Program-made: the position numbers and the translations under genes | The notes under the pieces: generated by a model | Database searches by the model: none | Told to the model about the DNA's origin: nothing | Seen by the model: only the letters and a program-made list of their open reading frames with translations | Shown here: positions 2,710-58,413 of the stretch, in pieces | Numbering within the stretch: the stretch's first letter is position 1 | How the letters are laid out: the number at the start of each line of letters is the position of its first letter | Origin: Flavobacteriales bacterium | GTDB lineage: Bacteria; Bacteroidota; Bacteroidia; Flavobacteriales; Flavobacteriaceae | Reading direction: 5' to 3' | Length of the DNA: 64,000 nucleotides | NCBI GenBank assembly: GCA_027066365.1 | Contig: JAMONV010000006.1 | Location: 3,532 to 67,531 of the forward strand

Positions 2710-2720
2710 AAGGAATCATT

Positions 2721-4142
2721 ATGTATAAAAAGGAAGTTCGTGGCGAATTAATACTCGGTAATAAATCTTATGCCAATATTACCGAAGATGTATTGCGCCA
2801 TCAGGAGTCGCAAAAAAAGTGGTATAATGCCCCTGCATGGTGGTGGATAGCTTTTGTTATATTCTTTATTTTAATGAGTATCGGCCTGGGTTGGGCGGTA
2901 TCCTATAAGACCATTACTCAAGGTATCGGGACTTGGGGAAACAATAACCAAACCGCCTGGGGATGGGCAATTATCAATTTTGTATGGTGGATCGGTATCG
3001 GACATGCCGGTACGGCTTTTTCCATCTTTTTGCTGGTATTGCGTCAAAAGTGGCGAACCTCAATTAACCGGGCGGCGGAAGCCATGACTATTTTCGCCGT
3101 TATGGCGGCCGGTTTGTTTCCCGCAATCCACGTAGGACGTCCTTGGGATGAAATTTTCATTTTTCCATACGGACCCAACAGTCGAGGATTATGGGTTAAC
3201 TGGAATTCACCGTTGCTTTGGGACGTAATCGCTATTACCACATACCTGACCACTTCGTTTTTGTTTTGGTACATCGGTATGATTCCCGATTTTGCAACGA
3301 TACGGGAACGTTCCAGCGGAATTAAGAAGAAAATTTTCAGTGCCTTGAGCTTCGGATTTGTGGGACACATGAAAAGCTGGAGACGGTTTGAGGATGCGGT
3401 TTATATCCTGGGAGGATTGGCTGCGCCTTTGGTTATTTCGGTGCACTCGATCGTATCCACCGACTTTTCGGCCGGTATCGTTCCCGGTTGGCATGAAACC
3501 ATTTTCCCGCCTTTCTTTGTGGTAGGAGCCATTTTCTCCGGTTTCGCCATGGTGCTAACCTTGATGATTATTATCCGAAAAGTCTATAAATTACACGAAT
3601 ACGTAACCGATGATCACCTCGATGCCATTGCCCGTATCATTATTTTTGTGAGTTTGATTATGGGTTCGGCCTATTTGATTGAAGAATTTATTGCTTATTA
3701 CTCGGCCAATCCGTATGAGAAATACATTTTCCTCGATAGTTATTTGAAAGGTGATTATGCATGGACCTATTGGGGTATGGTTATTTTCAATGCTTTTGTG
3801 CCGCAATTGTTCTGGTTTAGAAAAGTAAGACGAAATCTGTTGTGGCTTTTCATCATTTCGATTATCATTAATATCGGAATGTGGCTGGAACGTTATAACA
3901 TTGTAATACCACCGACGGCTCAAGACTTTTTGCCTGCGAACTGGGGCGAATATCATCCCACCATGGTCGATATTTGGAACTATTTGGGTACGATAGGTTT
4001 GTTTGGTGTCGGTGTATTGCTCTTTATGCGTTACTTGCCGATTATGGCTATGAATGAATTGAAGCAACAAGCGAAACGTCAAACCGAATTGACCGTTGAA
4101 GCTTCCGTTTACGATATCCTGGAGAAAAAAATAGTAAAATGA
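2721..4142 (+). CDS. actC: Alternative complex III subunit ActC (NrfD/PsrC-like polytopic membrane quinol-binding subunit)
   Basis: 473-aa multi-TM protein starting 12 nt after the actB stop. NrfD-like hydrophobic pattern and ACIII synteny. Confidence 0.85.
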   Translation: MYKKEVRGELILGNKSYANITEDVLRHQESQKKWYNAPAWWWIAFVIFFILMSIGLGWAVSYKTITQGIGTWGNNNQTAWGWAIINFVWWIGIGHAGTAFSIFLLVLRQKWRTSINRAAEAMTIFAVMAAGLFPAIHVGRPWDEIFIFPYGPNSRGLWVNWNSPLLWDVIAITTYLTTSFLFWYIGMIPDFATIRERSSGIKKKIFSALSFGFVGHMKSWRRFEDAVYILGGLAAPLVISVHSIVSTDFSAGIVPGWHETIFPPFFVVGAIFSGFAMVLTLMIIIRKVYKLHEYVTDDHLDAIARIIIFVSLIMGSAYLIEEFIAYYSANPYEKYIFLDSYLKGDYAWTYWGMVIFNAFVPQLFWFRKVRRNLLWLFIISIIINIGMWLERYNIVIPPTAQDFLPANWGEYHPTMVDIWNYLGTIGLFGVGVLLFMRYLPIMAMNELKQQAKRQTELTVEASVYDILEKKIVK

Positions 4143-4639
4143 AAAAATACATAGGAGTTTACGATAACGACGTAAAGTTGCTCGAAGGCATCGATGAAAT
4201 GGTCGATGAAAAAGTTCCCGTGGAGGATGTGATTACGCCTTTTGTGATAGAAGAATTATTGGAAAAGTTGAAAGTTCATTCCAATATTCAATTTCTGGGT
4301 TTTCTTTACGGAGTTTTTGCCGTGATTAGCATCTTCGCGGGCTTATATTACACCTTTGTGATCGATTATCCGCTTAATATCGGCGGTAAGCCCAATTTGT
4401 CGCTCACCTTTGTGGTTCTTTTGTTTGTGGGAATGGTTTTGACTGTGGTATTATTGACTACCGGAACCTTTTTCCACCAAGAACGATTATATCCGATGAA
4501 AAAGCCACCCTTTGAATATCCCGGAATGCATACGGATAAATTCGTTGTGGTGGTGGATCTTTCCCATAAGCAAAAAGCTTCGTCGATATTTGAGAAGACC
4601 GGAGCTATCGATATGCAGGAAATAGAAGTAAACGCTTAA
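4139..4639 (+). CDS. actD: Alternative complex III subunit ActD (DUF3341-like)
   Basis: ATGA start/stop overlap with actC. 166 aa with a soluble N-terminal part plus 2 TM segments. Position matches ActD. Confidence 0.7.
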   Translation: MKKYIGVYDNDVKLLEGIDEMVDEKVPVEDVITPFVIEELLEKLKVHSNIQFLGFLYGVFAVISIFAGLYYTFVIDYPLNIGGKPNLSLTFVVLLFVGMVLTVVLLTTGTFFHQERLYPMKKPPFEYPGMHTDKFVVVVDLSHKQKASSIFEKTGAIDMQEIEVNA

Positions 4640-4649
4640 ACCGGAAACT

Positions 4650-5222
4650 ATGAAAAGAATCGTTATATTATTGGTCGCGGTTGTTGTGCTGGGTGCGTGT
4701 AATCATCATCAGGAGAAGACCCAATGGGATTATATGGGTGCTTTCGATATGTATTATTCCAAGGCATATGAAAGTTATTCACCCAATAAATATTTACCGG
4801 GCGGAATGACTTTGCAAAAGGCACCCGAAGGAACCGTAGCGCGAGGTAAAAAACCGTATCCTTTCAAAAACAAATTGGCCGACCGCAAAAAGGCCGGAGA
4901 AGTGTTGAAAAATCCCATGCAACCTACCAAAGCCAATTTGGCGAAAGGTAAGGAAATGTATGAACGGTTTTGTGCCATTTGCCATGGAAAAGACGGCAAA
5001 GGTATGGCTACGGCGGATAACAATACTTTATATAAAAAGAAATTATATCCCATTCCGCCCGCCAATTTGGCAACCGAAACCGTTAAAAATTATCCCGACG
5101 GTGAAATTTTCCATGTAATTACCATGGGTTCTGCTATTATGGGTGCACACGGAAGCCAGATTAAGCCGGATGATCGCTGGCGTATTGTATTGTATATTAA
5201 AAACGGTTTCAAAGTAAATTAA
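4650..5222 (+). CDS. actE: Alternative complex III subunit ActE, monohaem cytochrome c lipoprotein
   Basis: Signal peptide with a lipobox-like LGAC. Single CxxCH haem motif (CAICH). Position follows actD. Confidence 0.75.
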   Translation: MKRIVILLVAVVVLGACNHHQEKTQWDYMGAFDMYYSKAYESYSPNKYLPGGMTLQKAPEGTVARGKKPYPFKNKLADRKKAGEVLKNPMQPTKANLAKGKEMYERFCAICHGKDGKGMATADNNTLYKKKLYPIPPANLATETVKNYPDGEIFHVITMGSAIMGAHGSQIKPDDRWRIVLYIKNGFKVN

Positions 5223-5228
5223 TGCCTT

Positions 5229-6425
5229 ATGGAACGACAATTCGAATTCACCAAAAAATTGAAGACTTTTACCTATATTCTTATGGCTATCGGAATGGTG
5301 GCTACGGCCATTGGATTTTTAACCGATAAAAACCGTGCATGGTCTTCATTGTTATTGAATAATTATTATTTTCTATCCCTATCATTGGGAGCTATATTTT
5401 GGATGGCGATTCAGTATATCACCGAAGCGGGATGGTCGGCTGCGTTTAAGCGTGTTCCCGAATCAATGGCTTCCTATTTGTTGCCGGCTTTTGCCCTGAT
5501 GTTGATCATAGCAACGCTAGGTGTAAAAGTATTATACCAATGGGCTGATCCGGGAACGCACTACGATGCTTTCGAACTGAAATTCATCAGTCATCATTTG
5601 CACGAAAAAGCAGGTTATCTCAATCTCGGATTTTTTGTAGTTAGAACAGTTGTTTATTTTATTCTTTGGTGGCTGGTGATCCGGGTGCTTATTAATTTCT
5701 CGAAGAAAGAAGACGCCAATAAAGAACAAGCCATGCATTGGCATCATAAATCCTGGTATTATTCACGGGTTTATATTTTCGTATGGGCTTTGACCTTTAT
5801 TTTTGCATCGGTGGATTATATGATGAGTATCGAAAGCATGTGGTTCAGTCACATATTTCCCGTGAAAGAAATTATTTCCGCTTTTGTGCATGGTGCAGCA
5901 GCCATTATCCTATTCATTATTTACCTTTACTACAAGGGATACTATAATTTTGTCAATAAATCACATTGGCAGGATTTGAGTAAATACGTATTTATGGGTG
6001 CCATTTTGTTCGGCTATGCGTGGTATTTCCAATACATGCTCATTTGGTATGGAAATATTCCCGAAGAAACCGAATATTATTTCTTGCGCAGGTTCCATTT
6101 TTCTCAAACGCTTTTTGTGCTTTCTATCGTGTTGAATTTTGTTATTCCGTTTAGTTTGTTGTTGTGGAATCGTTGGGCGAGAAATCCCAAGTTTTTAATG
6201 ATTGCGGCTATTGTGTTTTTGTTAGGTAAATATTTGGAGCATTATTTGATGGTTTATCCCGATATCGTTAAACATCCCGTTTTCGGATTTACCGAAATCG
6301 GCATGTTCATCGGATTTGCCGGATTGTTTATGTTTTTGACATTTAATGCATTGTCGAAACGTAAGTTGTTGCCGGTGAATCATCCTTATTTTGAAGAAAG
6401 CATTTTGCATCACATCCCCCATTAA
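5229..6425 (+). CDS. actF: Alternative complex III subunit ActF (NrfD-related membrane subunit)
   Basis: 398-aa polytopic membrane protein, the last gene of the act cluster, followed by a hairpin and T-run. Confidence 0.7.
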   Translation: MERQFEFTKKLKTFTYILMAIGMVATAIGFLTDKNRAWSSLLLNNYYFLSLSLGAIFWMAIQYITEAGWSAAFKRVPESMASYLLPAFALMLIIATLGVKVLYQWADPGTHYDAFELKFISHHLHEKAGYLNLGFFVVRTVVYFILWWLVIRVLINFSKKEDANKEQAMHWHHKSWYYSRVYIFVWALTFIFASVDYMMSIESMWFSHIFPVKEIISAFVHGAAAIILFIIYLYYKGYYNFVNKSHWQDLSKYVFMGAILFGYAWYFQYMLIWYGNIPEETEYYFLRRFHFSQTLFVLSIVLNFVIPFSLLLWNRWARNPKFLMIAAIVFLLGKYLEHYLMVYPDIVKHPVFGFTEIGMFIGFAGLFMFLTFNALSKRKLLPVNHPYFEESILHHIPH

Positions 6426-20597: not shown

Positions 20598-21209
20598 ATG
20601 GCAACAAGTAAATCGACGAAAAAGATTTTCCAAATGGTGTATGGTCTCGGTGCATCCGTCGTGATCATCGGAGCATTGTTTAAAATCGCCCACTGGCCAT
20701 ACGGGACTTACATTCTGGCCTTCGGGATGATTGTAGAAGCTATAGTATTTGCTTTTTCAGCATTCGAGCCTATTGAAGAGGAATTCGATTGGTCCCTGTT
20801 ATATAACGAAATTAAGAAAAGCAGCTTGAGTGGTAACCAAATCGAGGCCAAATTGTCGGCCAAATTGGATGAAATGCTTCGTGAAGCACAATTGGATGCC
20901 GAGCTTATGCGTAATTTGGGCCAAAGTATTAATAAATTTGCCGAAGCGGCCAAAGGATTGGATGTGGTGGTGGATGCCGCAGGATCTACGGTTAAATTTA
21001 ATGAAGAATTGCTGGAAGCATCCGCCCATTTGGAAGGATTGAATCAAGTATTGAAAAGTCAAGTGGAAAGTGTCGATAAAAACGCACAACTTAATGAAGT
21101 GATGGCGCAAAATGCCGCCGGCTTACAGGCAAAAATGCAAGAACTGAACGAGAACATGGCCAAATTGAATCAAATTTACCAAGGCATGTTGGCTGCTATG
21201 GGTAAATAA
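20598..21209 (+). CDS. gldL: T9SS/gliding motor protein GldL (PorL family)
   Basis: Two N-terminal TM helices (YGLGASVVIIGALFKIAHWP ...) followed by a coiled-coil cytoplasmic tail. Position follows gldK. Confidence 0.85.
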   Translation: MATSKSTKKIFQMVYGLGASVVIIGALFKIAHWPYGTYILAFGMIVEAIVFAFSAFEPIEEEFDWSLLYNEIKKSSLSGNQIEAKLSAKLDEMLREAQLDAELMRNLGQSINKFAEAAKGLDVVVDAAGSTVKFNEELLEASAHLEGLNQVLKSQVESVDKNAQLNEVMAQNAAGLQAKMQELNENMAKLNQIYQGMLAAMGK

Positions 21210-21250
21210 AATGTATTGGTATTTTTGTTAAATCAATAAATTGAAAAAAT

Positions 21251-22834
21251 ATGGCCGGAAATAAATTATCTCCCCGTCAAAAGATGATTAACCTGATGTA
21301 CTTGGTGTTTATTGCCATGTTGGCACTCACCATGTCCAAAAAGGTTTTGACATCTTTCGGGCGCGTTTTTGAAGATTTGAAAGTTCAGGTGCAATTGACC
21401 AACAAGAAAAATGCCGATCAATTGGCCGTGTTAGGCCAAAAAGCCCAAGAACAAGCCAAGAAATACGGGCAAATGTATCAGGATGCCCAAGCATTGAATC
21501 AAGCAACTCTGGACTTTGAAAAATATATGGATAACTTTGAAAAAGAATTACTTATAAAATCCAAACAATTAACACCTGCCGATAAGAACAAACCGATTGA
21601 TTTTTCGAAAATCGACTACGAAACATTGGATAAGGGTTTTGTTTTGGACGATATATTTTTCAAAGGAGAAGGATACACCAAAAAAGGACAGGAATTCTTG
21701 GATAAAATCAATAATTTCCGAAAAACCTTGATCGATTACGCTAAAAAATACAATAATACAGAGGCCATTAAACGTATTGAACGACGTTTCGATACGAAAG
21801 ACAAAAAGGTTAAAGGATCGGTCTATAAATGGCTTTATTATAATTTTGAAGATTTTCCTTTGATCGCATCATTGACCAACATGGCCCGTTTGGAAGCCAA
21901 TGCAGCCGAATCAACCAATGAGATTCTTTCTTCAATGCTGCAAGGAAAATTGATTTCGGACGTTTCCATGAAAAACTACCAAGCATTGGTTTTGCTTGAT
22001 AAAAGCGCCTTTTTCCCTACGGAACACGTAACCGGTAAAGTGGTTTTAGGCCGATACGATCAAAGCCTCCAATTTGAAAAAGCCAAAATTAATGATCAAG
22101 AAGTGCCGGAAGATAAAATGCAAAACGGACAGGTGTTGATCGATATACCGGCCGGAAATCCCGGTGATAAAACCTTGTCGGGAATGTTGGAGTTTAAAGA
22201 AGGCGATTCCATAGTTCAATTGCCGTTTGAATATAAATATTCCGTAATTCCCATGCCTAATTCGGCCGTGATTTCCGCCGATAAAATGAATGTGGTTTAT
22301 AAAGGTGTGAAAAACCCCCTTTCCATATCGGTTCCGGGCATCCCCGACAATAAAGTCAAAGTATCGGCCCCGGCTCAATTGCGAAAGGTAAAATCCGGAA
22401 AATACGAATTGGATGTATCCAATTACCGGGGAAGAACCATTGATATCAACGTATCATGGGTATTGCCTAACGGTCAACGCAAGTCCGATAAGAAAACATT
22501 CCGGGTGAAAAATATTCCACGTCCGGTGGGTACCATACTCGGATCGGACGGCTATGTTAAATTGCCCAAGCGAAATATACAAATCGGAACGATTGGAGCG
22601 GCCTTGCCCGACTTTGATTTCGACGTAAAAGTTATCGTAACAAGCTTTGATTTCAAAGCACCCGGTCAACCCACCATTCGCGTGAACGGAACCCGATTAA
22701 ACCAAAGAGCTATTAATGCTTTGCGCAAGGTGAAACGGGGACAAACCGTTCAAATCATCAACATCAAAGCACGCTTGGCCGGAAGCAGTATCAAATTGCA
22801 AAAAGTAACGCCGATTATTATTGAAATTCAATAA
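21251..22834 (+). CDS. gldM: T9SS/gliding motor protein GldM (PorM family)
   Basis: Characteristic N-terminus MAGNKLSPRQKMINLMYLVFIAMLAL, a single TM and a long periplasmic region. 527 aa. Confidence 0.85.
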   Translation: MAGNKLSPRQKMINLMYLVFIAMLALTMSKKVLTSFGRVFEDLKVQVQLTNKKNADQLAVLGQKAQEQAKKYGQMYQDAQALNQATLDFEKYMDNFEKELLIKSKQLTPADKNKPIDFSKIDYETLDKGFVLDDIFFKGEGYTKKGQEFLDKINNFRKTLIDYAKKYNNTEAIKRIERRFDTKDKKVKGSVYKWLYYNFEDFPLIASLTNMARLEANAAESTNEILSSMLQGKLISDVSMKNYQALVLLDKSAFFPTEHVTGKVVLGRYDQSLQFEKAKINDQEVPEDKMQNGQVLIDIPAGNPGDKTLSGMLEFKEGDSIVQLPFEYKYSVIPMPNSAVISADKMNVVYKGVKNPLSISVPGIPDNKVKVSAPAQLRKVKSGKYELDVSNYRGRTIDINVSWVLPNGQRKSDKKTFRVKNIPRPVGTILGSDGYVKLPKRNIQIGTIGAALPDFDFDVKVIVTSFDFKAPGQPTIRVNGTRLNQRAINALRKVKRGQTVQIINIKARLAGSSIKLQKVTPIIIEIQ

Positions 22835-22844
22835 GATTGCAGAT

Positions 22845-23732
22845 ATGAAAAAGTTGTTATTAATCATTCCTTTCCTCCTCGGTTTTCAGGTTACAATGGC
22901 ACAGTCGAATATTCTGAATGCCAAAACGCCGCAGGAAATCGGAAAGAAAACTCCCCAACAGATGAAGGAAGATAATTCCAAACCTTTACCCTATCCGTAT
23001 ACGGACGACAAAGACGTTTTATGGAGTATTCAGGTTTGGGAACGCATAGATTTGGATGAACGTTTTAACCTACCTTTGTTTTATCCGACCGACTCGTTGC
23101 AAAGCACCCAGGACCGTAGAGCTTTGTTTGATGTTTTGCTCTCGGGTATAAAGAGCGGAAAAATCAAAGAAGTTTATGCCGATTCCTATTTTACCGATAA
23201 ACTCGATACGGCGGCTTTGAACGAACGTTTGTCTTATGTGGATACTTTGCCGCAAGGAATCGAGCAATTCAATTACGAAGGCAAGGTGGATGATCAATAC
23301 ATTCGTCGTTTGAAAATTACTCCCGATCGAATCGAAGAATACCATATTCGCGGTGTTTGGTATTTTGATGCCAAATACGGAGAATTACGTTACCGTATAA
23401 TAGGAATTGCGCCGGTGGCTTACGACCTTGGCGCAGAAGCGCAAGGAATCGAAAGCGATTTGGTGGAATTGTTCTGGGTATTTTATCCCGATGCGCGTGA
23501 ATTGTTGCACCAATTTTATGCATATAATCCTAGAAACGCCGCCCGTCCGTTCAATTTCGATCATTTACTTAACGGACGGTTTTTTACGACCACCATTTAT
23601 AAAACGAGTAATGAATACGGCGATCGTCCGATTAAAGAATACATTCATGACGATGCATTGCGTCAATTGCTCGAATCCAATAAAATAAAGGAAATGATTC
23701 GCGACTACGAGGAGGATCAATGGAATTATTAA
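22845..23732 (+). CDS. gldN: T9SS/gliding periplasmic ring protein GldN (PorN family)
   Basis: Signal peptide from the ATG at 22845 (the listed ORF starts at an upstream TTG). Last gene of the gldKLMN block. Confidence 0.8.
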   Translation: MKKLLLIIPFLLGFQVTMAQSNILNAKTPQEIGKKTPQQMKEDNSKPLPYPYTDDKDVLWSIQVWERIDLDERFNLPLFYPTDSLQSTQDRRALFDVLLSGIKSGKIKEVYADSYFTDKLDTAALNERLSYVDTLPQGIEQFNYEGKVDDQYIRRLKITPDRIEEYHIRGVWYFDAKYGELRYRIIGIAPVAYDLGAEAQGIESDLVELFWVFYPDARELLHQFYAYNPRNAARPFNFDHLLNGRFFTTTIYKTSNEYGDRPIKEYIHDDALRQLLESNKIKEMIRDYEEDQWNY

Positions 23733-27233: not shown

Positions 27234-27307
27234 GGCCCCGTGGCGTAACTGGATAGCGCAACTGACTACGGATCAGTAGGTTGCAGGTTCGAATCCTGCC
27301 GGGGTCA
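27234..27307 (+). tRNA. tRNA-Arg (anticodon ACG)
   Basis: Hand-folded cloverleaf with a 7-bp acceptor (one G-U), a 4-bp D stem and a 5-bp anticodon stem. The anticodon loop is CT-ACG-GA. T arm is GCAGG-TTCGAAT-CCTGC with discriminator A. CCA is not encoded. Confidence 0.95.
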
Positions 27308-47891: not shown

Positions 47892-49298
47892 ATGGATTAT
47901 TGGCATGTTGCAATTCCCTGGTTATTGGTAATTTTGTTTGTCATCGGTTATATTGCTATTGCCACGGAGCATTCGTTGCGGGTTGATAAGACGGTTCCGG
48001 CTTTGGTGATGGCGGCGATCTTGTGGACGGTTTTGAGTCTTGCGTTCAAAGGCGGTTGGATTTCCATTATCGACCCGGAGGGACATGTTTTTTCTTATTC
48101 GGATGGCGAAGTGGCGGAGGAAGGTTTTCGGAATATTTTGTTGCACCATTTGGCGAAGACTTCCGAGATATTGGTATTTTTGACGGGAGCGATGACGATT
48201 GTCGAGTTGATAGATTTGCACCGGGGTTTTGAGATTATAAAGGGATATATACGTACCAACAGCAAGCGTAAATTATTGTGGATTATTAGTATTTTGGCTT
48301 TTTTTCTTTCGGCGGTTATTGATAATTTGACCGCTACGATTGTTTTGATTACGCTTTTGCGCAAGCTCATTCATGACCGGAATACGAGACTTTGGTATGC
48401 TTCGATGATTGTGATTGCGGCCAATGCAGGCGGGGCATGGAGTCCTATCGGCGATGTGACGACCACGATGTTATGGATTGCCAATAAGATTTCGGTGGGT
48501 GGGTTGGTTGAGCATGTGGTGGCGCCTTCATTTTTAAATTTGGCGGTGCCGCTATTGATTGTGTCCTATTTTCCGGTTTTCAAGGGGAAAGTGCGCTATA
48601 AGAAGACCGGCGAGAAGGAGATGGAGAAACTGGAGCTATTGTTGAGTAGTAAGACTATGTTGATTGTCGGTTTGGGTTCGATAGTGATGGTGCCGGTATT
48701 TAAGGTTATCACGCATTTGCCTCCTTATATGGGGATGATGTTGGCGTTGGGTATAGTTTGGCTGGTGTCGGAAATGGTTCATCCGGAGGAGAATTTTTCG
48801 GAGGAGCGCAAGCATTTGTATTCGGCGCACCGGGCATTATCGCGCATTGAGATGTCGAGTATTTTGTTTTTCTTGGGTATATTATTGGCGGTAGCGACTT
48901 TGGAGACGGTGGTTTGGGGAAAAATTCCCATTGACGGCCGGATGGAATATGCGAATGCTTTGCAATATTTGGCTTATAAGTTGTCGGTAGTATTTCCGAG
49001 TCAAGAGATGGTGATCATTTTGTTGGGTATTTTGTCGTCCATTATTGACAATGTGCCTTTGGTTGCCGCTTCAATGAGCATGTTTAATTGGCCGTTTGAT
49101 GATGTTTATTGGCATCAAATTGCATATTCGGCCGGGACGGGCGGAAGTATTTTGATTATCGGCTCGGCGGCGGGAGTAGCAGCCATGGGCATGGAAAAGA
49201 TCAATTTCTTTTGGTATTTGAAAAAAATATCGTGGTTGGCTTTCCTTGGTTTTATGACCGGGTTTATTACGTTTTGGATCGAACATTTCTTTATCTGA
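47892..49298 (+). CDS. nhaD: Na+/H+ antiporter NhaD family (ArsB/NhaD permease superfamily)
   Basis: 468-aa polytopic protein with an NhaD-like N-terminus (IGYIAIATEHSLRVDKTVPAL) and IDNLTATIV / IDNVPLVAA repeats. Confidence 0.8.
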   Translation: MDYWHVAIPWLLVILFVIGYIAIATEHSLRVDKTVPALVMAAILWTVLSLAFKGGWISIIDPEGHVFSYSDGEVAEEGFRNILLHHLAKTSEILVFLTGAMTIVELIDLHRGFEIIKGYIRTNSKRKLLWIISILAFFLSAVIDNLTATIVLITLLRKLIHDRNTRLWYASMIVIAANAGGAWSPIGDVTTTMLWIANKISVGGLVEHVVAPSFLNLAVPLLIVSYFPVFKGKVRYKKTGEKEMEKLELLLSSKTMLIVGLGSIVMVPVFKVITHLPPYMGMMLALGIVWLVSEMVHPEENFSEERKHLYSAHRALSRIEMSSILFFLGILLAVATLETVVWGKIPIDGRMEYANALQYLAYKLSVVFPSQEMVIILLGILSSIIDNVPLVAASMSMFNWPFDDVYWHQIAYSAGTGGSILIIGSAAGVAAMGMEKINFFWYLKKISWLAFLGFMTGFITFWIEHFFI

Positions 49299-49310
49299 CG
49301 GTTGGTTGAT

Positions 49311-49440
49311 GTTAAAATCGTTAAACCGTTGAACCATGCAATCGCGGGGTGAGGCCCCGTCCCGCCCGTAATTTTCTTTGAAGTGCGAAGAACAAAACCG
49401 GAAAATCCGGTGCGGGATGGAATTGTTAAACCGTTGAACC
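49311..49440 (+). repeat. 130-nt structured intergenic element, copy A (second copy at 58166-58295)
   Basis: Hand alignment gives 127/130 identity with 58166-58295. Bounded by 16-nt direct repeats GTTAAACCGTTGAACC (49320-49335 and 49425-49440). Contains three hairpins and a closing helix (see findings). Confidence 0.85.
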
Positions 49441-49494
49441 GATTAATAGCTTCGCCGCACTTTAACCTTTTACCTTTTTCCTTAATGTTTAGAG

Positions 49495-49534
49495 CGTTAA
49501 ACCGTTGAATCGTGGAATCGTTAAATCGAATATT
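49495..49534 (+). repeat. 8-nt periodic micro-repeat array (CGTTAAAC CGTTGAAT CGTGGAAT CGTTAAAT CGAATATT)
   Basis: Five consecutive 8-mers share CG-T-AA- phasing. Related arrays are at 49319-49334, 49424-49447 and 58279-58318. Confidence 0.7.
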
Positions 49535-49582
49535 GGATTCGCCGCTTTGTCTCGTTTTCCGTTTCCCTTTTTTCTTCGTGAT

Positions 49583-49630
49583 AATTCGTGCAATTCGTGG
49601 TTTATTTTCTTGCCACGAATTTCACGAATT
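49583..49630. repeat. 18-bp near-perfect inverted repeat between convergent nhaD and the DUF2520-type gene
   Basis: AATTCGTGCAATTCGTGG (49583-49600) pairs with CCACGAATTTCACGAATT (49613-49630), with 1 mismatch and a 12-nt loop. There is no flanking U-run on either strand. Confidence 0.7.
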
Positions 49631-49719
49631 ACACTAAATCACTCCGGAAAATTGTTCATTATTCGTTAAAAAAATCTGTTTTCCCGTTTCCCATATTCCG
49701 TTAAATTTGTAAGAGGGAG

Positions 49720-50490
49720 TTATTTTTTTTGCCGGAAGTTTTTTATTATCATTTCACTGATTTTCAGGTAAATTTCCGTCCATTCGGGGTGATTTTGTTT
49801 GAGGTAATCCAAATGTTTTTCTATGGTATGAAGGTCATTTCGTTTGGCGGGTCCCGTAAGGGCCTCGGCGGGTGGGAGTTCGCGAAGTTTGGCAGCGGTT
49901 TCTTCGATTAACGGAAAAAGTAAATCAAAAGGAATGTTTTTACTTTTAAGTATTTCGTATGCGGCTTCATACATCCACATGGAAAAATTTGAGGCGAATA
50001 CGGCGGCTACATGTAAGACTTTGCGTTCCATGTGATTGGAAATGCGCACATTTCGTGAAATGATGGCGGCCAATGTCCGGAGGACTTTCAAATCTTTTTC
50101 ATGGCTAGCTTCCACGAGTATGGGAATTTCGGTCCAATCCGTTTGCCGGTTGGCCGAAAGGCTTTGGAGGGGGTAGAAAACGCCGTGTCGTTTTTGAGCG
50201 ATAATATCCATGGGCAATACGCCTGAAGTATGCACGAAAATTCCTTCCACGGACGGTACTTTCCGGGAAAGTTCATTTATAGCGTCGTCCTTAACGGCGA
50301 TGATATGTACCTTGGCGGGGGGTAGTTCACGGAGTGTTTTTAGCACCTGTAGTCCGGCATTTTTCCATTTTTCGGGATGGCGATTCCAAAGGCTAACAAT
50401 CTTAATTTTTTCCGGATAATTAAGCATGGCTTTCGTCAGTTGACGGGCGACATTGCCACCACCAATGATGTTGACCGTAACGGGTTTCAT
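49720..50490 (-). CDS. Rossmann-fold NAD(P)-binding + DUF2520 domain protein
   Basis: N-terminal IIGGGNVARQL dinucleotide motif. 256 aa, resembling the ProC-like/DUF2520 family. Confidence 0.7.
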   Translation of the reverse strand: MKPVTVNIIGGGNVARQLTKAMLNYPEKIKIVSLWNRHPEKWKNAGLQVLKTLRELPPAKVHIIAVKDDAINELSRKVPSVEGIFVHTSGVLPMDIIAQKRHGVFYPLQSLSANRQTDWTEIPILVEASHEKDLKVLRTLAAIISRNVRISNHMERKVLHVAAVFASNFSMWMYEAAYEILKSKNIPFDLLFPLIEETAAKLRELPPAEALTGPAKRNDLHTIEKHLDYLKQNHPEWTEIYLKISEMIIKNFRQKK

Positions 50491-52418: not shown

Positions 52419-54088
52419 TTACTTGAAGTATAAGTTGAGTTTGGTTACAAATGCTTTTATGGCTTGGTTATCTTTGATGATTAATTCCAATTTTTCTTTA
52501 TCGGTTAAAAATCGGACGGGAATGTTTTTTTGTTCCCGGGATTTGATACGTTTGGTTTTGAGTTCGATATAATCGTTTTGTAAACGTTCTTGAAGGAATT
52601 TCAACAGGCGGTTTGATAATTGATTGAATTCGTTTTCGCTAATGGCGCTGTCGAAACTGAAAAGGAGAATATTTCCGTTGACTTGAGGGTTGCTGTTTTG
52701 AAGCAGAGCCAATTTGCTTTTTTCATTGTTTTGCTTGAGTAAATCGAGGAAAGATTGAAAAGCTTGTTTGAAGTCCGCTTCACTGAACGGGTTATTTTTA
52801 CGTTGTCGTTGAGTGTTGCGGACGGTTTTCATGATGTTGTTTAAACTCAGGTTGCCGGATATCGGGTTTGTATTTTCCGGTTGTTGAGTTTGAGGCGGAT
52901 TTTTTTTGTTTTCGCTTGGTGTGTCGGTTTTTTGCGGTGTATTATGTGGGTGGGTGTTGGCTGGCTGTGACGGAGGTTTGTCGTTTGCAAACGATGTTTC
53001 GGAGGAAGGAGATTTAGGGGTTTGGTTTTTTTTTTTTTCGAAAGCACACCGGCTAGTTTAAAGAGCAGTATTTCGACGAGCAACCTCGGATTTTGACTTG
53101 ATTTGAATTGGATGTCGGTTTGTGAAGCCTGTTCGATGGCTTGAAGTAAATTTCGGTTATCGAATAATTGTGCATGTTCGATGTAGCGATTTTTTATTTC
53201 TTCGCCGGTTTCCACAAGTCCTGCCGTAGCCGGATTTCGAGCCATAAGCAAGTCGCGTAAATGCGTGGACAAACCGCCTATGAAGTGATGAATATCGATA
53301 CCTTTATCGACCAATTCGTTAAAATAGAGGATGAGTTTTTTTTCGTTGTTTTCGGAGATCAGGGATGTTATGTTGAAGTAGATGTCATAATCCAGGATAC
53401 CGAGATATTCGGCCACCAATTGTCGTGTGATATGTTCGTTTCCGAGAGATATGATTTTATCGAAAGCGGAGAGGGCGTCTCGCAAAGCACCGTCGGCACT
53501 GCGGGCGATGAGCATAAGGGCATCGTCATCGGCTCGGATTCCTTCCAGAGAAGCGATTTTTTTCAGGTGTTTTCGGATGTCTTCGGTGTTGATTCGTTTG
53601 AAGTCGAAGATTTGGCAGCGTGACAGGATGGTTGCGGGGATTTTGTGTTTTTCGGTGGTGGCGAGGATAAAAATCGCATGTTCGGGCGGTTCTTCCAAGG
53701 TTTTTAGGAAAGCGTTGAAAGCCGATGTGCTGAGCATGTGCACTTCGTCGATGATGTAGACTTTATATTTTCCTACATGTGGTGGGATGCGCACTTGTTC
53801 GGTGAGTTCGCGAATATCGTCCACGGAGTTGTTGGAAGCGGCGTCCAGTTCAAAAATATTAAAAGATAAATCTTGTTCGGGATTGTCGAGGTATGCTTTA
53901 TTGACTTCTTTGGCCATGATACGGGCGCAAGTGGTTTTGCCGACGCCGCGTGGTCCGGTAAACAAAAGGGCTTGTGCCAACCGGTTTTGTTCGATGGCTT
54001 TTTGTAGTATTTTGGTAACGGCCTGTTGACCGACTACTTCGTCGAATTTTTGTGGTCTGTATTTTCGTGCGGAAACGACGTAGCTCAT
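52419..54088 (-). CDS. dnaX: DNA polymerase III subunit tau; full length (~556 aa) only if a -1 shift occurs in the A13 run at 53026-53038
   Basis: N-terminal AAA+ clamp-loader motifs (ARKYRPQKF, GPRGVGKTT, IIDEVHMLS, SRC). The -1 frame from 53027 is open, encodes a P/Q/S/T-rich linker, and is continuous with the listed 137-aa ORF 52419-52832. Confidence 0.75.
52847..54088 (-). CDS. dnaX: dnaX genomic-frame product (gamma-like, ~413 aa, with a 59-aa out-of-frame K/R/T/H-rich tail)
   Basis: The listed ORF 52847-54124. The start is set at MSYVVSARKYRP (54088) because a TATCTTTG -7 box occupies 54129-54122. Confidence 0.6.
   Translation of the reverse strand: MSYVVSARKYRPQKFDEVVGQQAVTKILQKAIEQNRLAQALLFTGPRGVGKTTCARIMAKEVNKAYLDNPEQDLSFNIFELDAASNNSVDDIRELTEQVRIPPHVGKYKVYIIDEVHMLSTSAFNAFLKTLEEPPEHAIFILATTEKHKIPATILSRCQIFDFKRINTEDIRKHLKKIASLEGIRADDDALMLIARSADGALRDALSAFDKIISLGNEHITRQLVAEYLGILDYDIYFNITSLISENNEKKLILYFNELVDKGIDIHHFIGGLSTHLRDLLMARNPATAGLVETGEEIKNRYIEHAQLFDNRNLLQAIEQASQTDIQFKSSQNPRLLVEILLFKLAGVLSKKKKTKPLNLLPPKHRLQTTNLRHSQPTPTHIIHRKKPTHQAKTKKIRLKLNNRKIQTRYPAT
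53026..53038 (-). other. A13 homopolymer (slippery tract) inside dnaX
   Basis: 13 consecutive T on the plus strand, counted directly. Read as AAA AAA AAA AAA A in the dnaX frame. Confidence 0.9.
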
Positions 54089-54121
54089 AATGTTTTTTAA
54101 ATGAAATACGGTGTTTAGAAG

Positions 54122-54129
54122 CAAAGATA
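54122..54129 (-). promoter_or_regulatory. Bacteroidetes-type -7 promoter element upstream of dnaX
   Basis: The minus strand reads TATCTTTG, 33 nt upstream of ATG 54088. Confidence 0.4.
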
Positions 54130-54209: not shown

Positions 54210-55217
54210 ATGAAAAAAAAATTGTTGCTACTGTTTTTATTGAGTATTGCTTGTAATCGTTCCGGGCCAAAAGTGTTTGACGGGCATGCTTTGGGAACCA
54301 CTTATCATATTGTAATCACGGGTGATGGCAAAAAGATACGTCAAAAAGATATCGACAAGCTTATTGCTTCACTAAATGCGTCGTTGTCCACTTATCAGCG
54401 TCAATCATTATTATCGGCATTTAATCGCGGCGAAGCCATTATTCCCGGCGAACATATCTTATATGTGATGGGCGAGGCGGGGAAAATTTATCGTGATACG
54501 AAAGGAATATATGATCCGACGGTGGGTGTTTTGGTGAACGCTTGGGGTTTTGGTCCGGGTAAAAGAATCAAAGGTATCGAGCATGATTCGCTCATGGTGG
54601 ATTCGTTACGAAGTTTGGTGGGTTTCGATATGATTTATGTGGATGGAAACGGACGGTTGAGGAAGCGAAAAAAAGGTATGTTTTTGGATTTTAATTCTAT
54701 TGCCAAAGGATATGTAATCGATAGAATAGGGGCGCTTATCCGTTCGCGCGGGTATGACAACTTTTTGGTGGAATTGGGTGGGGAAGTGATTGCTTCCGGT
54801 ATCAATGAAACCGAAAATCGCCCTTGGCGAGTGGGTATAGACTATCCGGTTGCGGGAAATTCGTCCGAAATTGCTTATTTGGAGATGCGGGATCGGGCAT
54901 TGGCTACATCGGGAAATTATCGTAAGTTTCGCATTGATCCCGGGACCGGGCGAAAATATGTGCATACGATAAATCCTTTGACGGGTTATCCGGCGGTGAG
55001 TCATTTGTTAAGTGCATCGGTAACGGCGCCTAATTGCACGGTAGCCGACGGTTGGGCGACGGCATGTATGGCGGGTGGATTTGAAAAGGCCAAATCTTGG
55101 ATTTTATCGAAAGATTTTCTGGAAGGTATTTTGATATATAGCGATAGTTTGGGAAAAATTAAGGTTTGGTATTCGCCGGGATTGGAAGGGAAATTGGTTC
55201 TTGAGAAGGAAATATGA
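54210..55217 (+). CDS. apbE: FAD:protein FMN transferase (ApbE family lipoprotein)
   Basis: Start set at MKKKLLLLFLLSIAC (lipobox). ApbE-like blocks (GTTYHIV, FDPTVG-like YDPTVG, IAKGY, ALATSGNY). Confidence 0.85.
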   Translation: MKKKLLLLFLLSIACNRSGPKVFDGHALGTTYHIVITGDGKKIRQKDIDKLIASLNASLSTYQRQSLLSAFNRGEAIIPGEHILYVMGEAGKIYRDTKGIYDPTVGVLVNAWGFGPGKRIKGIEHDSLMVDSLRSLVGFDMIYVDGNGRLRKRKKGMFLDFNSIAKGYVIDRIGALIRSRGYDNFLVELGGEVIASGINETENRPWRVGIDYPVAGNSSEIAYLEMRDRALATSGNYRKFRIDPGTGRKYVHTINPLTGYPAVSHLLSASVTAPNCTVADGWATACMAGGFEKAKSWILSKDFLEGILIYSDSLGKIKVWYSPGLEGKLVLEKEI

Positions 55218-56327: not shown

Positions 56328-58154
56328 GTGAAAAATTTTTTGGCGATGCATGCCGGAAGACACGAGCGATGGTTCAGATGGGCTGTGAAATTTCATAAAT
56401 GGCGATATCGCCACATAAGTGATGAGACCTACATGGCTATACTGAGTATTATAATCGGTATTGTGGGTGGACTGGTGGCGGTTACCATAAAAAACCTGAC
56501 TCATTTTATCGAATATTTTTTGCAGGAGACATTTATTAAGCGGATTTATTTAACGTGGTATTTTATTTTTCCCATAGCCGGGATAGGGTTTACGGTTTTT
56601 ATTGTTAGGAAACTGATCAAGCGTCCCGTTGATGACGGAATTCCGGTTATTTTATATTCGATAATGAAATTGAAAAGCCTAATTCCGGGATATCATACAT
56701 TTGCTTCGTTGGTAACGGCACCCATTACGGTGGGTTTCGGTGGTTCGGTGGGTTTGGAAGGTCCGTCGGCATTGACCGGTGCGGCGATAGGTTCGCGCAC
56801 GGCAAAGCTTTTGCATCTGCATTTGCGACAGAGGAATTTATTGATTGCAGCGGCTACGGCGGGTACTTTTTCGGCCATTTTCAAAGCGCCGGTTGCCGGC
56901 ATTATGTTTGTTATTGAAGTTTTGAGTTTCGATTTGACCATGACCAGTATGGTGCCGCTCATTTTGGCGTCCGTTTCGGGAATTTTAACCAGTTATTTCT
57001 TTTTGGGAAAAAATATTTTGTTGCATTTTGAATTAAAAAATCCTTATACGTTTTCGGAAATTCCGTTTTTTATATTGTTAGGTTTGACATCGGCCACAAC
57101 TTCCATTTATTTTATTAAGGTTTATTTTTGGATAGGAAGGTTGTTCGATAAAATAAATGCAGTATGGAAAAAATGGCTTTCGGGCGGTATTCTTTTGGGG
57201 GTTTTACTGTTTTCATTGCCGGCACTTTACGGTGAAGGTTATGATGTGATTAATCATTTGTTGGAAGGAAATTATCATTATGTGGTCAATCAATTTCCCA
57301 TAGCGATTAACCATAACGATTTGCATTGGGTGATTTTGGTGATGATTCTGTTGGTAAGTTTTAAAGTGGTGGGTATGGCTTTTACGCTGCATTCGGGAGG
57401 AATAGGCGGTGTATTTGCGCCTACCTTGTTTACGGGCGGGGTTTCGGGTTATGTGCTTGCCATGGTGATAAATTATTTGGGTTTTTTCTCGTATGAATTA
57501 CCTACGGAAAATTTTGCTTTGGTAGGAATGGCCGGTGCCATTGCAGGGGTGGTTCAAGCTCCTTTAATGGCTATTTTCCTCATTACGGAACTCACGGGCG
57601 GACACACACTCATGGTGCCTTTGATGATTGTGTCCACTTTATCGTATCTGATAACCAAGCGTTTTACAAAATACAGCATTTATACGATGCAATTAATTAA
57701 CAAAAGCCCTATTCCCACGCATAATAAAGATTATTTTGCAGGGATTTTAATCGATTGGGAAGAAGTGCTGGAAAATAATTTTTTACCGGTCACTCCGGAT
57801 ATGAAATTGGGTGCTATGTTGATGAATACGGTTACACGTTCGAAGCGGAATATTTTTCCCGTGCTTGATGAAGAACATCATTTGATTGGCGTGGTGTCGA
57901 TGGATGATATTCGCCATATTATGTTTAACCGTGAATTGTATGATAAATTGAAAATCAGGGATTTGATGCATCGACCGCCTGATTATATTTTGTTTAAACG
58001 GGATGATTTCCAAAAGGTCATGCAGCGTTTTCAGGAAACGGGTGCGTGGAATTTACCTGTGATTAAAGAAGATGGAACTTATGTCGGATTTTTATCCAAA
58101 TCGAAACTGTTGAGTGTTTATAGGAAAAAATTATTGGAGATTACATCGGAATAG
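56328..58154 (+). CDS. ClC family chloride channel / H+-Cl- antiporter with two C-terminal CBS domains
   Basis: Selectivity-filter-like blocks GGSVGLEGP and GIGGVFAP. A C-terminal CBS pair. The listed start is GTG 56328; ATG 56346 is an alternative. Confidence 0.85.
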   Translation: MKNFLAMHAGRHERWFRWAVKFHKWRYRHISDETYMAILSIIIGIVGGLVAVTIKNLTHFIEYFLQETFIKRIYLTWYFIFPIAGIGFTVFIVRKLIKRPVDDGIPVILYSIMKLKSLIPGYHTFASLVTAPITVGFGGSVGLEGPSALTGAAIGSRTAKLLHLHLRQRNLLIAAATAGTFSAIFKAPVAGIMFVIEVLSFDLTMTSMVPLILASVSGILTSYFFLGKNILLHFELKNPYTFSEIPFFILLGLTSATTSIYFIKVYFWIGRLFDKINAVWKKWLSGGILLGVLLFSLPALYGEGYDVINHLLEGNYHYVVNQFPIAINHNDLHWVILVMILLVSFKVVGMAFTLHSGGIGGVFAPTLFTGGVSGYVLAMVINYLGFFSYELPTENFALVGMAGAIAGVVQAPLMAIFLITELTGGHTLMVPLMIVSTLSYLITKRFTKYSIYTMQLINKSPIPTHNKDYFAGILIDWEEVLENNFLPVTPDMKLGAMLMNTVTRSKRNIFPVLDEEHHLIGVVSMDDIRHIMFNRELYDKLKIRDLMHRPPDYILFKRDDFQKVMQRFQETGAWNLPVIKEDGTYVGFLSKSKLLSVYRKKLLEITSE

Positions 58155-58165
58155 TGAATGCCGGA

Positions 58166-58295
58166 GTCAAAATCGTTAAACCGTTGAACCATGCAATCGC
58201 GGGGTGAAGCCCCGTCCCGCCCGTAATTTTCTTTGAAGTGCGAAGAACAAAACCGGAAAATCCGGTGCGGGATGGAATTGTTAAACCGTTGAATC
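58166..58295 (+). repeat. 130-nt structured intergenic element, copy B
   Basis: 127/130 identical to 49311-49440. Mismatches are at 58168, 58208 and 58294. Starts 11 nt after the clc stop codon. Confidence 0.85.
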
Positions 58296-58318
58296 GTTAA
58301 ACCGTTAAATCGAATAAT
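58279..58318 (+). repeat. 8-nt periodic micro-repeat array (TGTTAAAC CGTTGAAT CGTTAAAC CGTTAAAT CGAATAAT)
   Basis: Five phased 8-mers overlapping the 3' end of copy B, followed by a TTCGCCGC box and a 40-nt C/T-only tract (58331-58370). Confidence 0.7.
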
Positions 58319-58376
58319 GGCTTCGCCGCGCTTTTCCCTTTCTCCTTTTCCCTTTTCCCGTTTCCCTACCGCACCG

Positions 58377-58413
58377 TTTTTTTATGCTTGCCATCTAACT
58401 CAGCATAAAAAAA
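58377..58413. terminator. Perfect 12-bp A/T-rich hairpin (possible bidirectional terminator)
   Basis: TTTTTTTATGCT (58377-58388) pairs with AGCATAAAAAAA (58402-58413) around a 13-nt loop. Confidence 0.45.

Follow-up and report, generated by a model that had tools for sequence, protein, structure and literature searches.

The two near-identical 130-nt blocks that follow two ion-transporter genes of a Flavobacteriales bacterium raise the question of what such conserved non-coding DNA is for: a functional 3'-UTR or small RNA element, a protein-binding module, or merely a young repeat of the REP/MITE kind. Both blocks lie in a 64-kb stretch of a metagenome assembly, which was analysed as a whole and is called the window here. 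An identity of 127/130 between positions 49311-49440 (copy A) and 58166-58295 (copy B) had been reported from a hand alignment and was borne out by direct comparison, with the three mismatches found exactly where they had been placed (49313/58168, 49353/58208, and 49439/58294). Copy A indeed begins 12 nt past the TGA (49296-49298) of a gene for a CitMHS/NhaD-type transporter (47892-49298), and copy B 11 nt past the TAG (58152-58154) of a gene for a ClC channel with CBS domains (56328-58154), both on the strand of their upstream gene as described. The flanking DNA, said to be unrelated, is so only on the 5' side: on the 3' side, a similarity of ∼80% resumes past a 16-nt indel and covers CGAATAATGGCTTCGCCGC (aligned stretch CGAWTAATRGCTTCGCCGC) and a pyrimidine tract. 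This pair is the single long repeat reported by a repeat finder in the 64-kb window (136 nt, 96% ungapped identity). No open reading frame of at least 30 amino acids lies wholly within the 130-nt block, the longest internal ones having 20-24 codons' worth of amino acids, and a 41-amino-acid frame (49383-49508) starts inside copy A and ends past its 3' end.

An assembly artefact was considered and rejected. The same arrangement is found in an ENA metagenome contig (ERZ27262665:k141_153141) that is 99.98% identical to the window, and a short-k Logan contig of the same organism breaks 45 nt past the nhaD stop codon, inside the repeat, as would be expected of a multi-copy sequence. The ENA contig also differs from the window in dnaX (52419-54124, minus strand), which forms two reading frames of 425 and 137 amino acids in the window and one gene of 555 amino acids in the ENA contig. 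The difference consists of an A13 versus an A11 run (coding strand) and two adjacent substitutions at around codon 355, with the homopolymer at about 53021-53037. Recoding or slippage sites in the dnaX of other bacteria lie roughly at this place, and the homopolymer may be prone to slippage or may have been misassembled. Elsewhere in the window (1-6425 and 20598-23732), genes for alternative complex III (Fe-S subunit, NrfD-like protein, ActD, and cytochrome c) and gldL/M/N confirm that the host belongs to the Bacteroidota and has a type IX secretion/gliding apparatus. The gldLMN genes and the best protein matches assign the window to an uncultured lineage of this phylum, and the GC skew is positive over the whole window.

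The block and its surroundings consist of several small modules (Table 1). The 16-nt direct repeat GTTAAACCGTTGAAYC does bracket both cores, as had been noted, but it is not a unit of its own: it corresponds to two tandem copies of an 8-nt unit, CGTTRAAY (R8). With up to three mismatches allowed, the 16-mer has nine matches versus 1.8 expected, and the 8-nt unit is strongly over-represented, with ten matches versus 1.2 expected. Arrays of R8 are carried by just two intergenic regions of the 64-kb window and contain 2-4 units, with a third occurrence in region A (49495-49526) that precedes a second GATTCGCCGC motif and pyrimidine tract. A GGCTTCGCCGC motif (M2) and a pyrimidine tract come after the hairpin/R8 block. 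The 98%-identical block shared by copies A and B ends within the R8 arrays on both sides, and the adjoining M2 and pyrimidine modules are only ∼80% alike. This suggests that the block was recently copied between sites that already bore arrays. Further downstream, the inverted repeat between the convergent nhaD and DUF2520 genes is probably a convergent terminator region. The hairpin behind copy B resembles a terminator for both directions; if so, copy B would belong to the 3' UTR of the ClC gene.

Table 1. Positions of the repeat modules and hairpins in the two intergenic regions of the window.
Feature	Position	Strand	Remarks
Copy A of the young 130-nt block	49311-49440	+	R8 units, leader, long hairpin, R8 units; 127/130 versus copy B
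5' R8 array, copy A (first 16-mer of the preliminary description)	49319-49335	+	Equivalent in copy B at 58174-58190
Short GC hairpin CGGGG-TGAGG-CCCCG in leader	49345-49359	+	In window copies only
Long imperfect hairpin, copy A	49357-49420	+	Arms CCGTCCCGCCCGTAATTTTCT / GGAAAATCCGGTGCGGGATGG, variable apical region; covariance model R1, 80.8 bits
3' R8 array, copy A, 2 units	49424-49440	+	
M2 motif (CGATTAATAGCTTCGCCGC) and pyrimidine tract, first module of region A	49440-49483	+	
Second region-A module, without hairpin: R8 array, CGAATATTGGATTCGCCGC, pyrimidine tract	49495-49577	+	91-95% identical to L028, L030
AATTCGTG-type inverted repeat, 18-nt arms (AATTCGTGCAATTCGTGG / CCACGAATTTCACGAATT)	49583-49630	.	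Between convergent nhaD and DUF2520 genes
Copy B of the young 130-nt block	58166-58295	+	Direct comparison with copy A
Long hairpin, copy B	58212-58275	+	Covariance model R1
3' R8 array, copy B, 4 units	58279-58310	+	Two extra units, the 16-nt indel versus copy A
M2 motif (CGAATAATGGCTTCGCCGC) and (TTTCCC)-like pyrimidine tract, region B	58311-58367	+	
TTTTTTTATGCT...AGCATAAAAAAA hairpin downstream of copy B	58377-58413	.	Read from sequence; no flag in consensus terminator scan

The core of the block is a conserved hairpin of ∼64 nt in the window and of 60-68 nt across all copies. Its base stem is (CCG)TCCCGC/GCGGGA(TGG) and its distal stem ATTTTC/GAAAAT, with a bulge and a CCG/CGG segment between them. 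The leader in front of it reads GAGCGAAGCGAA in three of the metagenomic copies described below (L030, L027, and L034) and is partly kept in a fourth (L029); the window copies have the short GC hairpin instead, whose 3' strand shares nucleotides with the base of the long hairpin and whose loop accommodates the A/B mismatch at 49353. Over the five distinct hairpin sequences, 89% of pair cells are standard pairs, and 7 of 20 pairs are altered on both sides. None of 500 shuffles attained any of five pairing measures, and sliding the partner strand lowered the paired fraction to 35-58%. Every hairpin copy is also more stable than its own shuffles, with folding z-scores from -3.2 to -8.3 (for copy A, -4.9 on the plus strand versus -2.8 on the minus strand). 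The minimum-energy fold of the window copies is a three-way junction, which we rejected because L029 has changes that disrupt its inner helix or turn pairs in it into wobbles; a single long hairpin, in contrast, fits all copies.

The compensatory changes in these copies show that the intrastrand pairing of the hairpin is under selection. This would be expected if single-stranded DNA or RNA is recognised in its hairpin form, and would equally fit inverted half-sites of a binding protein that evolve together. A lack of compensatory changes had been named in the preliminary description as the mark of a plain selfish repeat; the hairpin does show compensatory changes, which leaves room for a structure-dependent role in RNA or single-stranded DNA. 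A consensus terminator scan flagged two elements in both copies, the leader hairpin on the plus strand and ACCGGATTTTCCGGT followed by TTTGTTC on the minus strand. The long hairpin itself is not followed by a U-tract. Hairpins that look more like terminators are located downstream of both copies (49583-49630 and 58377-58413), so that the copies are probably transcribed as part of a 3' UTR.

Further members of the family were found in JGI metagenomes, which were scanned with a pattern that matches all three modules of the window (TTAAACCGTTGAAYCG, a gap of 0-30 nt, and TTCGCCGC). The scan gave 11 loci from three related samples in which the same modules are reshuffled, a number that counts metagenome loci and not the copies in one genome. 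They share R8 arrays, M2, pyrimidine tracts, and the AATTCGTG inverted repeat, which is common to region A of the window, L028, L030, and L031 and is sometimes duplicated. M2 occurs 17 times in these loci, often in tandem units of ∼120 nt and often as a mini-hairpin (GCGGC-TTC-GCCGC), and most M2 modules stand without the long hairpin. The loci also hold many other tandem arrays with units of 7-9 nt, including (CGGTCAT)n and (TTGAATAG)n, and many of the contigs end inside repeats. Altogether, the long hairpin is present in six copies at six loci (window A, window B, and four JGI loci), and the modules in at least 20 copies. L029 is 87% identical to the window core and lies in sense orientation after a gene for an acyl-CoA dehydrogenase (ACAD). 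L030 and L027 have arms as in the window hairpin and an unrelated apical region, and the diverged hairpin of L034 points the opposite way to the R8 arrays that flank it on both sides. Particular neighbours may thus be present or missing around the hairpin module, which can face either way with respect to the arrays. In L027, the mosaic-repeat region has been invaded by an insertion sequence of the IS4 family (DDE_Tnp_1; 432-2031), whose terminal inverted repeats measure 30 nt. It was considered as the parent element and rejected, since these repeats show no relation to the hairpin arms.

The genome under study has two hairpin copies within ∼73 kb, and a 9-kb extension to the right of the window yielded no third one. 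A covariance model of the hairpin retrieved no further copy in ∼440 kb, including these 73 kb and ∼95 kb from the closest relatives, and in the latter, R8, M2, and the hairpin are all without a match.

The element is absent from all three orthologous sites that were checked in close relatives (nhaD, ClC, and ACAD). At the nhaD site of the closest relative, GCA_054041315.1, whose NhaD is 95% identical, a different tandem repeat with units of ∼135-150 nt takes its place; we observed at least four such units (L005:11430-12000), each with a GTGACAG...TGTCACTGCGAGGAGTGA hairpin, and contig L006 breaks inside this tandem repeat. Behind the ClC gene, GCA_054041315.1 and GCA_054041655.1 (ClC 89% identical) have a 97-nt spacer and then a different gene. 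The ACAD orthologues, which are 92-94% identical to the gene at L029 and of which one comes from the same JGI sample, are followed by a plain terminator hairpin. More distant relatives likewise lack the element. Relatives with 83-84% identical NhaD stem from a deep-sea hydrothermal chimney metagenome (IMG 3300005095). In one of them (L043, NhaD 83% identical), the nhaD flanks (1-780 and 2180-2854) are full of unrelated short-period arrays, namely (TGACCGA)n, (CCCAAATCC)n, (AGTGAAAGA)n, and (CTTTTCAA)n. This indicates that patchworks of 7-9-nt intergenic tandem repeats are a trait of the lineage.

The position of both window copies behind ion-transporter genes had implied a tie to such genes or to their 3' UTRs, and this does not hold up in the family as a whole. 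The third close copy follows the acyl-CoA dehydrogenase gene, and the neighbours of other modules include a gene for a PglZ response regulator and an IS4-type transposase, with further modules at the promoter side of genes. Modules in sense orientation past stop codons are those of window A, window B, L028 (the PglZ response regulator), L029, and L034. The 3' end of a neighbouring gene has an antisense module in L033, in L031 (first module), and, for the convergent DUF2520 gene, in window A. Promoter-side modules at divergent genes are those of L030, L031 (second module), L032, and L035, and the modules of L027 adjoin the IS4-type insertion sequence. Since the neighbouring genes have no common function, the ion-transporter association in the window is coincidental.

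The occurrence of further members elsewhere, beside other genes and in either orientation, together with the empty orthologous sites in close relatives, supports the last of the three options given at the outset, a young REP/MITE-like family. We consider it likely that the two 130-nt copies are recent duplicates of a composite piece of a lineage-specific, non-coding, dispersed family of modular intergenic repeats. The family appears to be built of (CGTTRAAY)n arrays, a GGCTTCGCCGC-type motif, pyrimidine tracts, small hairpins, and a ∼80-nt leader with the ∼64-nt hairpin, all of which are shuffled between loci.

This family is previously uncatalogued, and its kind is already known from BIME/REP, BOX, ERIC/Correia, and BrickBuilt MITE elements. 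That the block belongs to no known Rfam family, as had been supposed, was confirmed by a covariance-model search with all 4227 families: at gathering thresholds, the single match in the window is a tRNA (27234-27307), and at E ≤ 10 the region 49200-49800 gave no match overlapping 49311-49440 and nine chance matches (miRNA-like and other) at 49506-49698. A 20-mer of the hairpin had two chance matches in GTDB representative genomes, both in GC-rich Alphaproteobacteria. Four scans of viral contigs returned single chance matches only, with nothing found by the covariance model in those loci, and BLAST against plasmid and phage collections gave no match.

Like MITEs, the element is small, non-coding, multi-copy, and dispersed. 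Its hairpin arms of ∼20 nt could be read as terminal inverted repeats, but the ends of the 130-nt block are direct R8 repeats. No consistent target-site duplication was found: the 16-nt direct repeat is clean only in window A and B, the flanks of L029 differ at 4-5 positions, and L030, L027, and L034 have none. No cognate transposase or insertion sequence with matching ends was found within 73 kb. In E. coli, BIMEs are interspersed mosaic elements made of REP palindromes and short linker motifs. The family described here resembles them as an extragenic, non-coding mosaic of a palindromic unit and short motifs in variable combinations that often lies between stop codon and terminator, where a BIME hairpin can stabilise the upstream mRNA. 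It differs from them in lacking sequence similarity, in the length of its hairpin (∼64 nt, with a range of 60-68 nt, versus 20-40 nt in REP), and in its leader, which has no GTAG-type 5' tetranucleotide and reads GAGCGAAGCGAA-like at that place in the diverged copies. Its linkers are short-period tandem arrays, and no RAYT (Y1 transposase) gene was identified in the ∼73 kb of this genome. REP palindromes often form inverted pairs (REPINs), and no such inverted doublets were seen here.

The short tandem arrays have a parallel in cyanobacteria, where STRR are short tandemly repeated repetitive heptamers and SDR are small dispersed repeats. There as here, intergenic 7-8-nt tandem arrays of several types occur amid small hairpin-forming dispersed repeats; phylum and unit sequences differ. 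The term STRR appears in PMC2670836 and PMC7593598, and we found no published description of an equivalent of STRR/SDR-type arrays in Bacteroidota. The pneumococcal BOX elements (boxA-boxB(n)-boxC) and the RUP/SPRITE clusters, in which elements insert into one another (PMC10969869), are likewise modular and intergenic, with a variable copy number of the middle module, predicted stable structures, and clustering or nesting. They belong to another phylum and have other sequences, and in the present family the order of modules is not fixed and the hairpin can be inverted (L034). The BrickBuilt MITE of Porphyromonas gingivalis, from the same phylum, has a 23-nt repeat unit, small inverted-repeat ends, 19 copies in one genome, and experimentally shown promoter activity (PMC4596501). 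It is always intergenic and occurs in multiple forms, with a spacer-less internal tandem repeat between leader and tail subunits (PMC4596501), as is comparable to the arrangement found here, whereas our units measure 7-8 nt and no inverted repeats were found at the element ends. Finally, Correia/NEMIS and ERIC elements resemble the block in being ∼100-150 nt long, in forming long hairpins when co-transcribed, and in their location at gene ends; their hairpins are substrates of RNase III or RNase E and alter transcript levels (PMC10969869). They are MITEs of the classical type, which have both terminal inverted repeats and target-site duplications, neither of which was clearly seen in the present family.

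How the two copies arose can be outlined tentatively. The 130-nt block would have been copied between two pre-existing, array-bearing sites. The 8-nt arrays may have served as anchors for recombination, gene conversion, or template switching; alternatively, a hairpin-recognising enzyme may have mobilised the block in trans. The block may then persist between stop codon and terminator, where it would do little harm, and would be co-transcribed with nhaD and the ClC gene as a 3' UTR. As is the case for REP, ERIC, and Correia elements, a stable hairpin in this position may incidentally affect the decay or processing of the mRNA.

Some observations would rather fit a function of the transcript, namely that the hairpin is a cis-acting 3'-UTR RNA element that certain genes have recruited to their downstream side, as a stabiliser against 3' exonucleases, a processing site for RNase III/E, or a variant terminator. 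All three type-I copies (window A, window B, and L029) are in sense orientation 11-38 nt past a stop codon, which could reflect such a function, and the probable terminators downstream suggest that the element would be transcribed. The window hairpin folds with -28.2 kcal/mol on the plus strand versus -22.2 kcal/mol on the minus strand, and among the plus-strand pair cells six are G-U versus two A-C. The compensatory changes point in the same direction, selection for pairing being something that a purely neutral repeat does not need. Yet L030, L034, L031, and L033 are antisense to neighbouring genes or lie on their promoter side, the genes that would be served are functionally unrelated, their orthologues in close relatives do without the element, and the long hairpin lacks a U-tract. 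We therefore regard a recruited cis-acting RNA element as unlikely. A bolder and rather improbable proposal is that leader and long hairpin are the recognition module of an undescribed, hairpin-dependent mobilisation of single-stranded DNA in the manner of REP/RAYT or IS200/605, or else a selected structured 3'-UTR RNA, with the arrays as a Bacteroidota counterpart of STRR that would serve as landing pads.

It is quite improbable that the (CGTTRAAY)n arrays and M2 are binding arrays for a DNA-binding protein (nucleoid-associated, partition-like, or regulatory) and that the hairpin is incidental. The excess of the 8-nt unit over expectation, its conservation between otherwise differing loci, and the retention of M2 across diverged modules could be understood in this way. 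Against it speak the free number of units, which varies from two to five, the 8-bp period, which is off the helical repeat, and the restriction of the arrays to two intergenic regions in 64 kb. Moreover, the relatives carry many unrelated short-period arrays in like positions, which indicates slippage-prone filler rather than one operator.

The M2 motif that goes with copy B (58312-58330, plus strand) has a 19-nt exact antisense match, GAATAATGGCTTCGCCGCG, in the coding region of apbE (54426-54444, minus strand; codons 93-99), 3.9 kb away. Of 60 random 468-nt segments used as a control, 57 had longest matches of just 12-17 nt and three of 23 or 39 nt. The match could be due to chance, to a short patch of gene conversion, or to an antisense target, in which case the 3' UTR of the ClC gene would give rise to a trans-acting antisense RNA. 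We hold the latter to be highly improbable: the exact match is confined to copy B, with 2-3 positions at which the consensus of the family deviates, nothing points to a discrete small RNA, and gene conversion or chance after multiple testing explains the match equally well.

A resemblance to integron attC sites, which mark the 3' end of gene cassettes and have the core consensus GTTRRRY, can practically be dismissed: the element does follow stop codons in gene orientation, contains an imperfect inverted repeat, and has a fitting GTTRAAY unit, but its anatomy is wrong, with the motif as direct and not inverted repeats at both ends, no inverse core RYYYAAC, a hairpin base made of CCGTCCCGC/GCGGGATGG and not of core sites, housekeeping genes on both strands around it, and no integrase within 73 kb.

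The reading as a dispersed modular repeat family removes a false lead for annotation, as the element is not a regulatory RNA of ion transporters, and gene finders and small RNA predictors should mask it. The repeats break short-read assemblies and mark insertion-tolerant sites just past stop codons. For the organism, the finding reveals an uncatalogued family of modular repeats in an uncultured Bacteroidota lineage whose relatives come from deep-sea hydrothermal chimney metagenomes, and the covarying hairpin offers a handle for seeking the factor that mobilises this family, if there is any.
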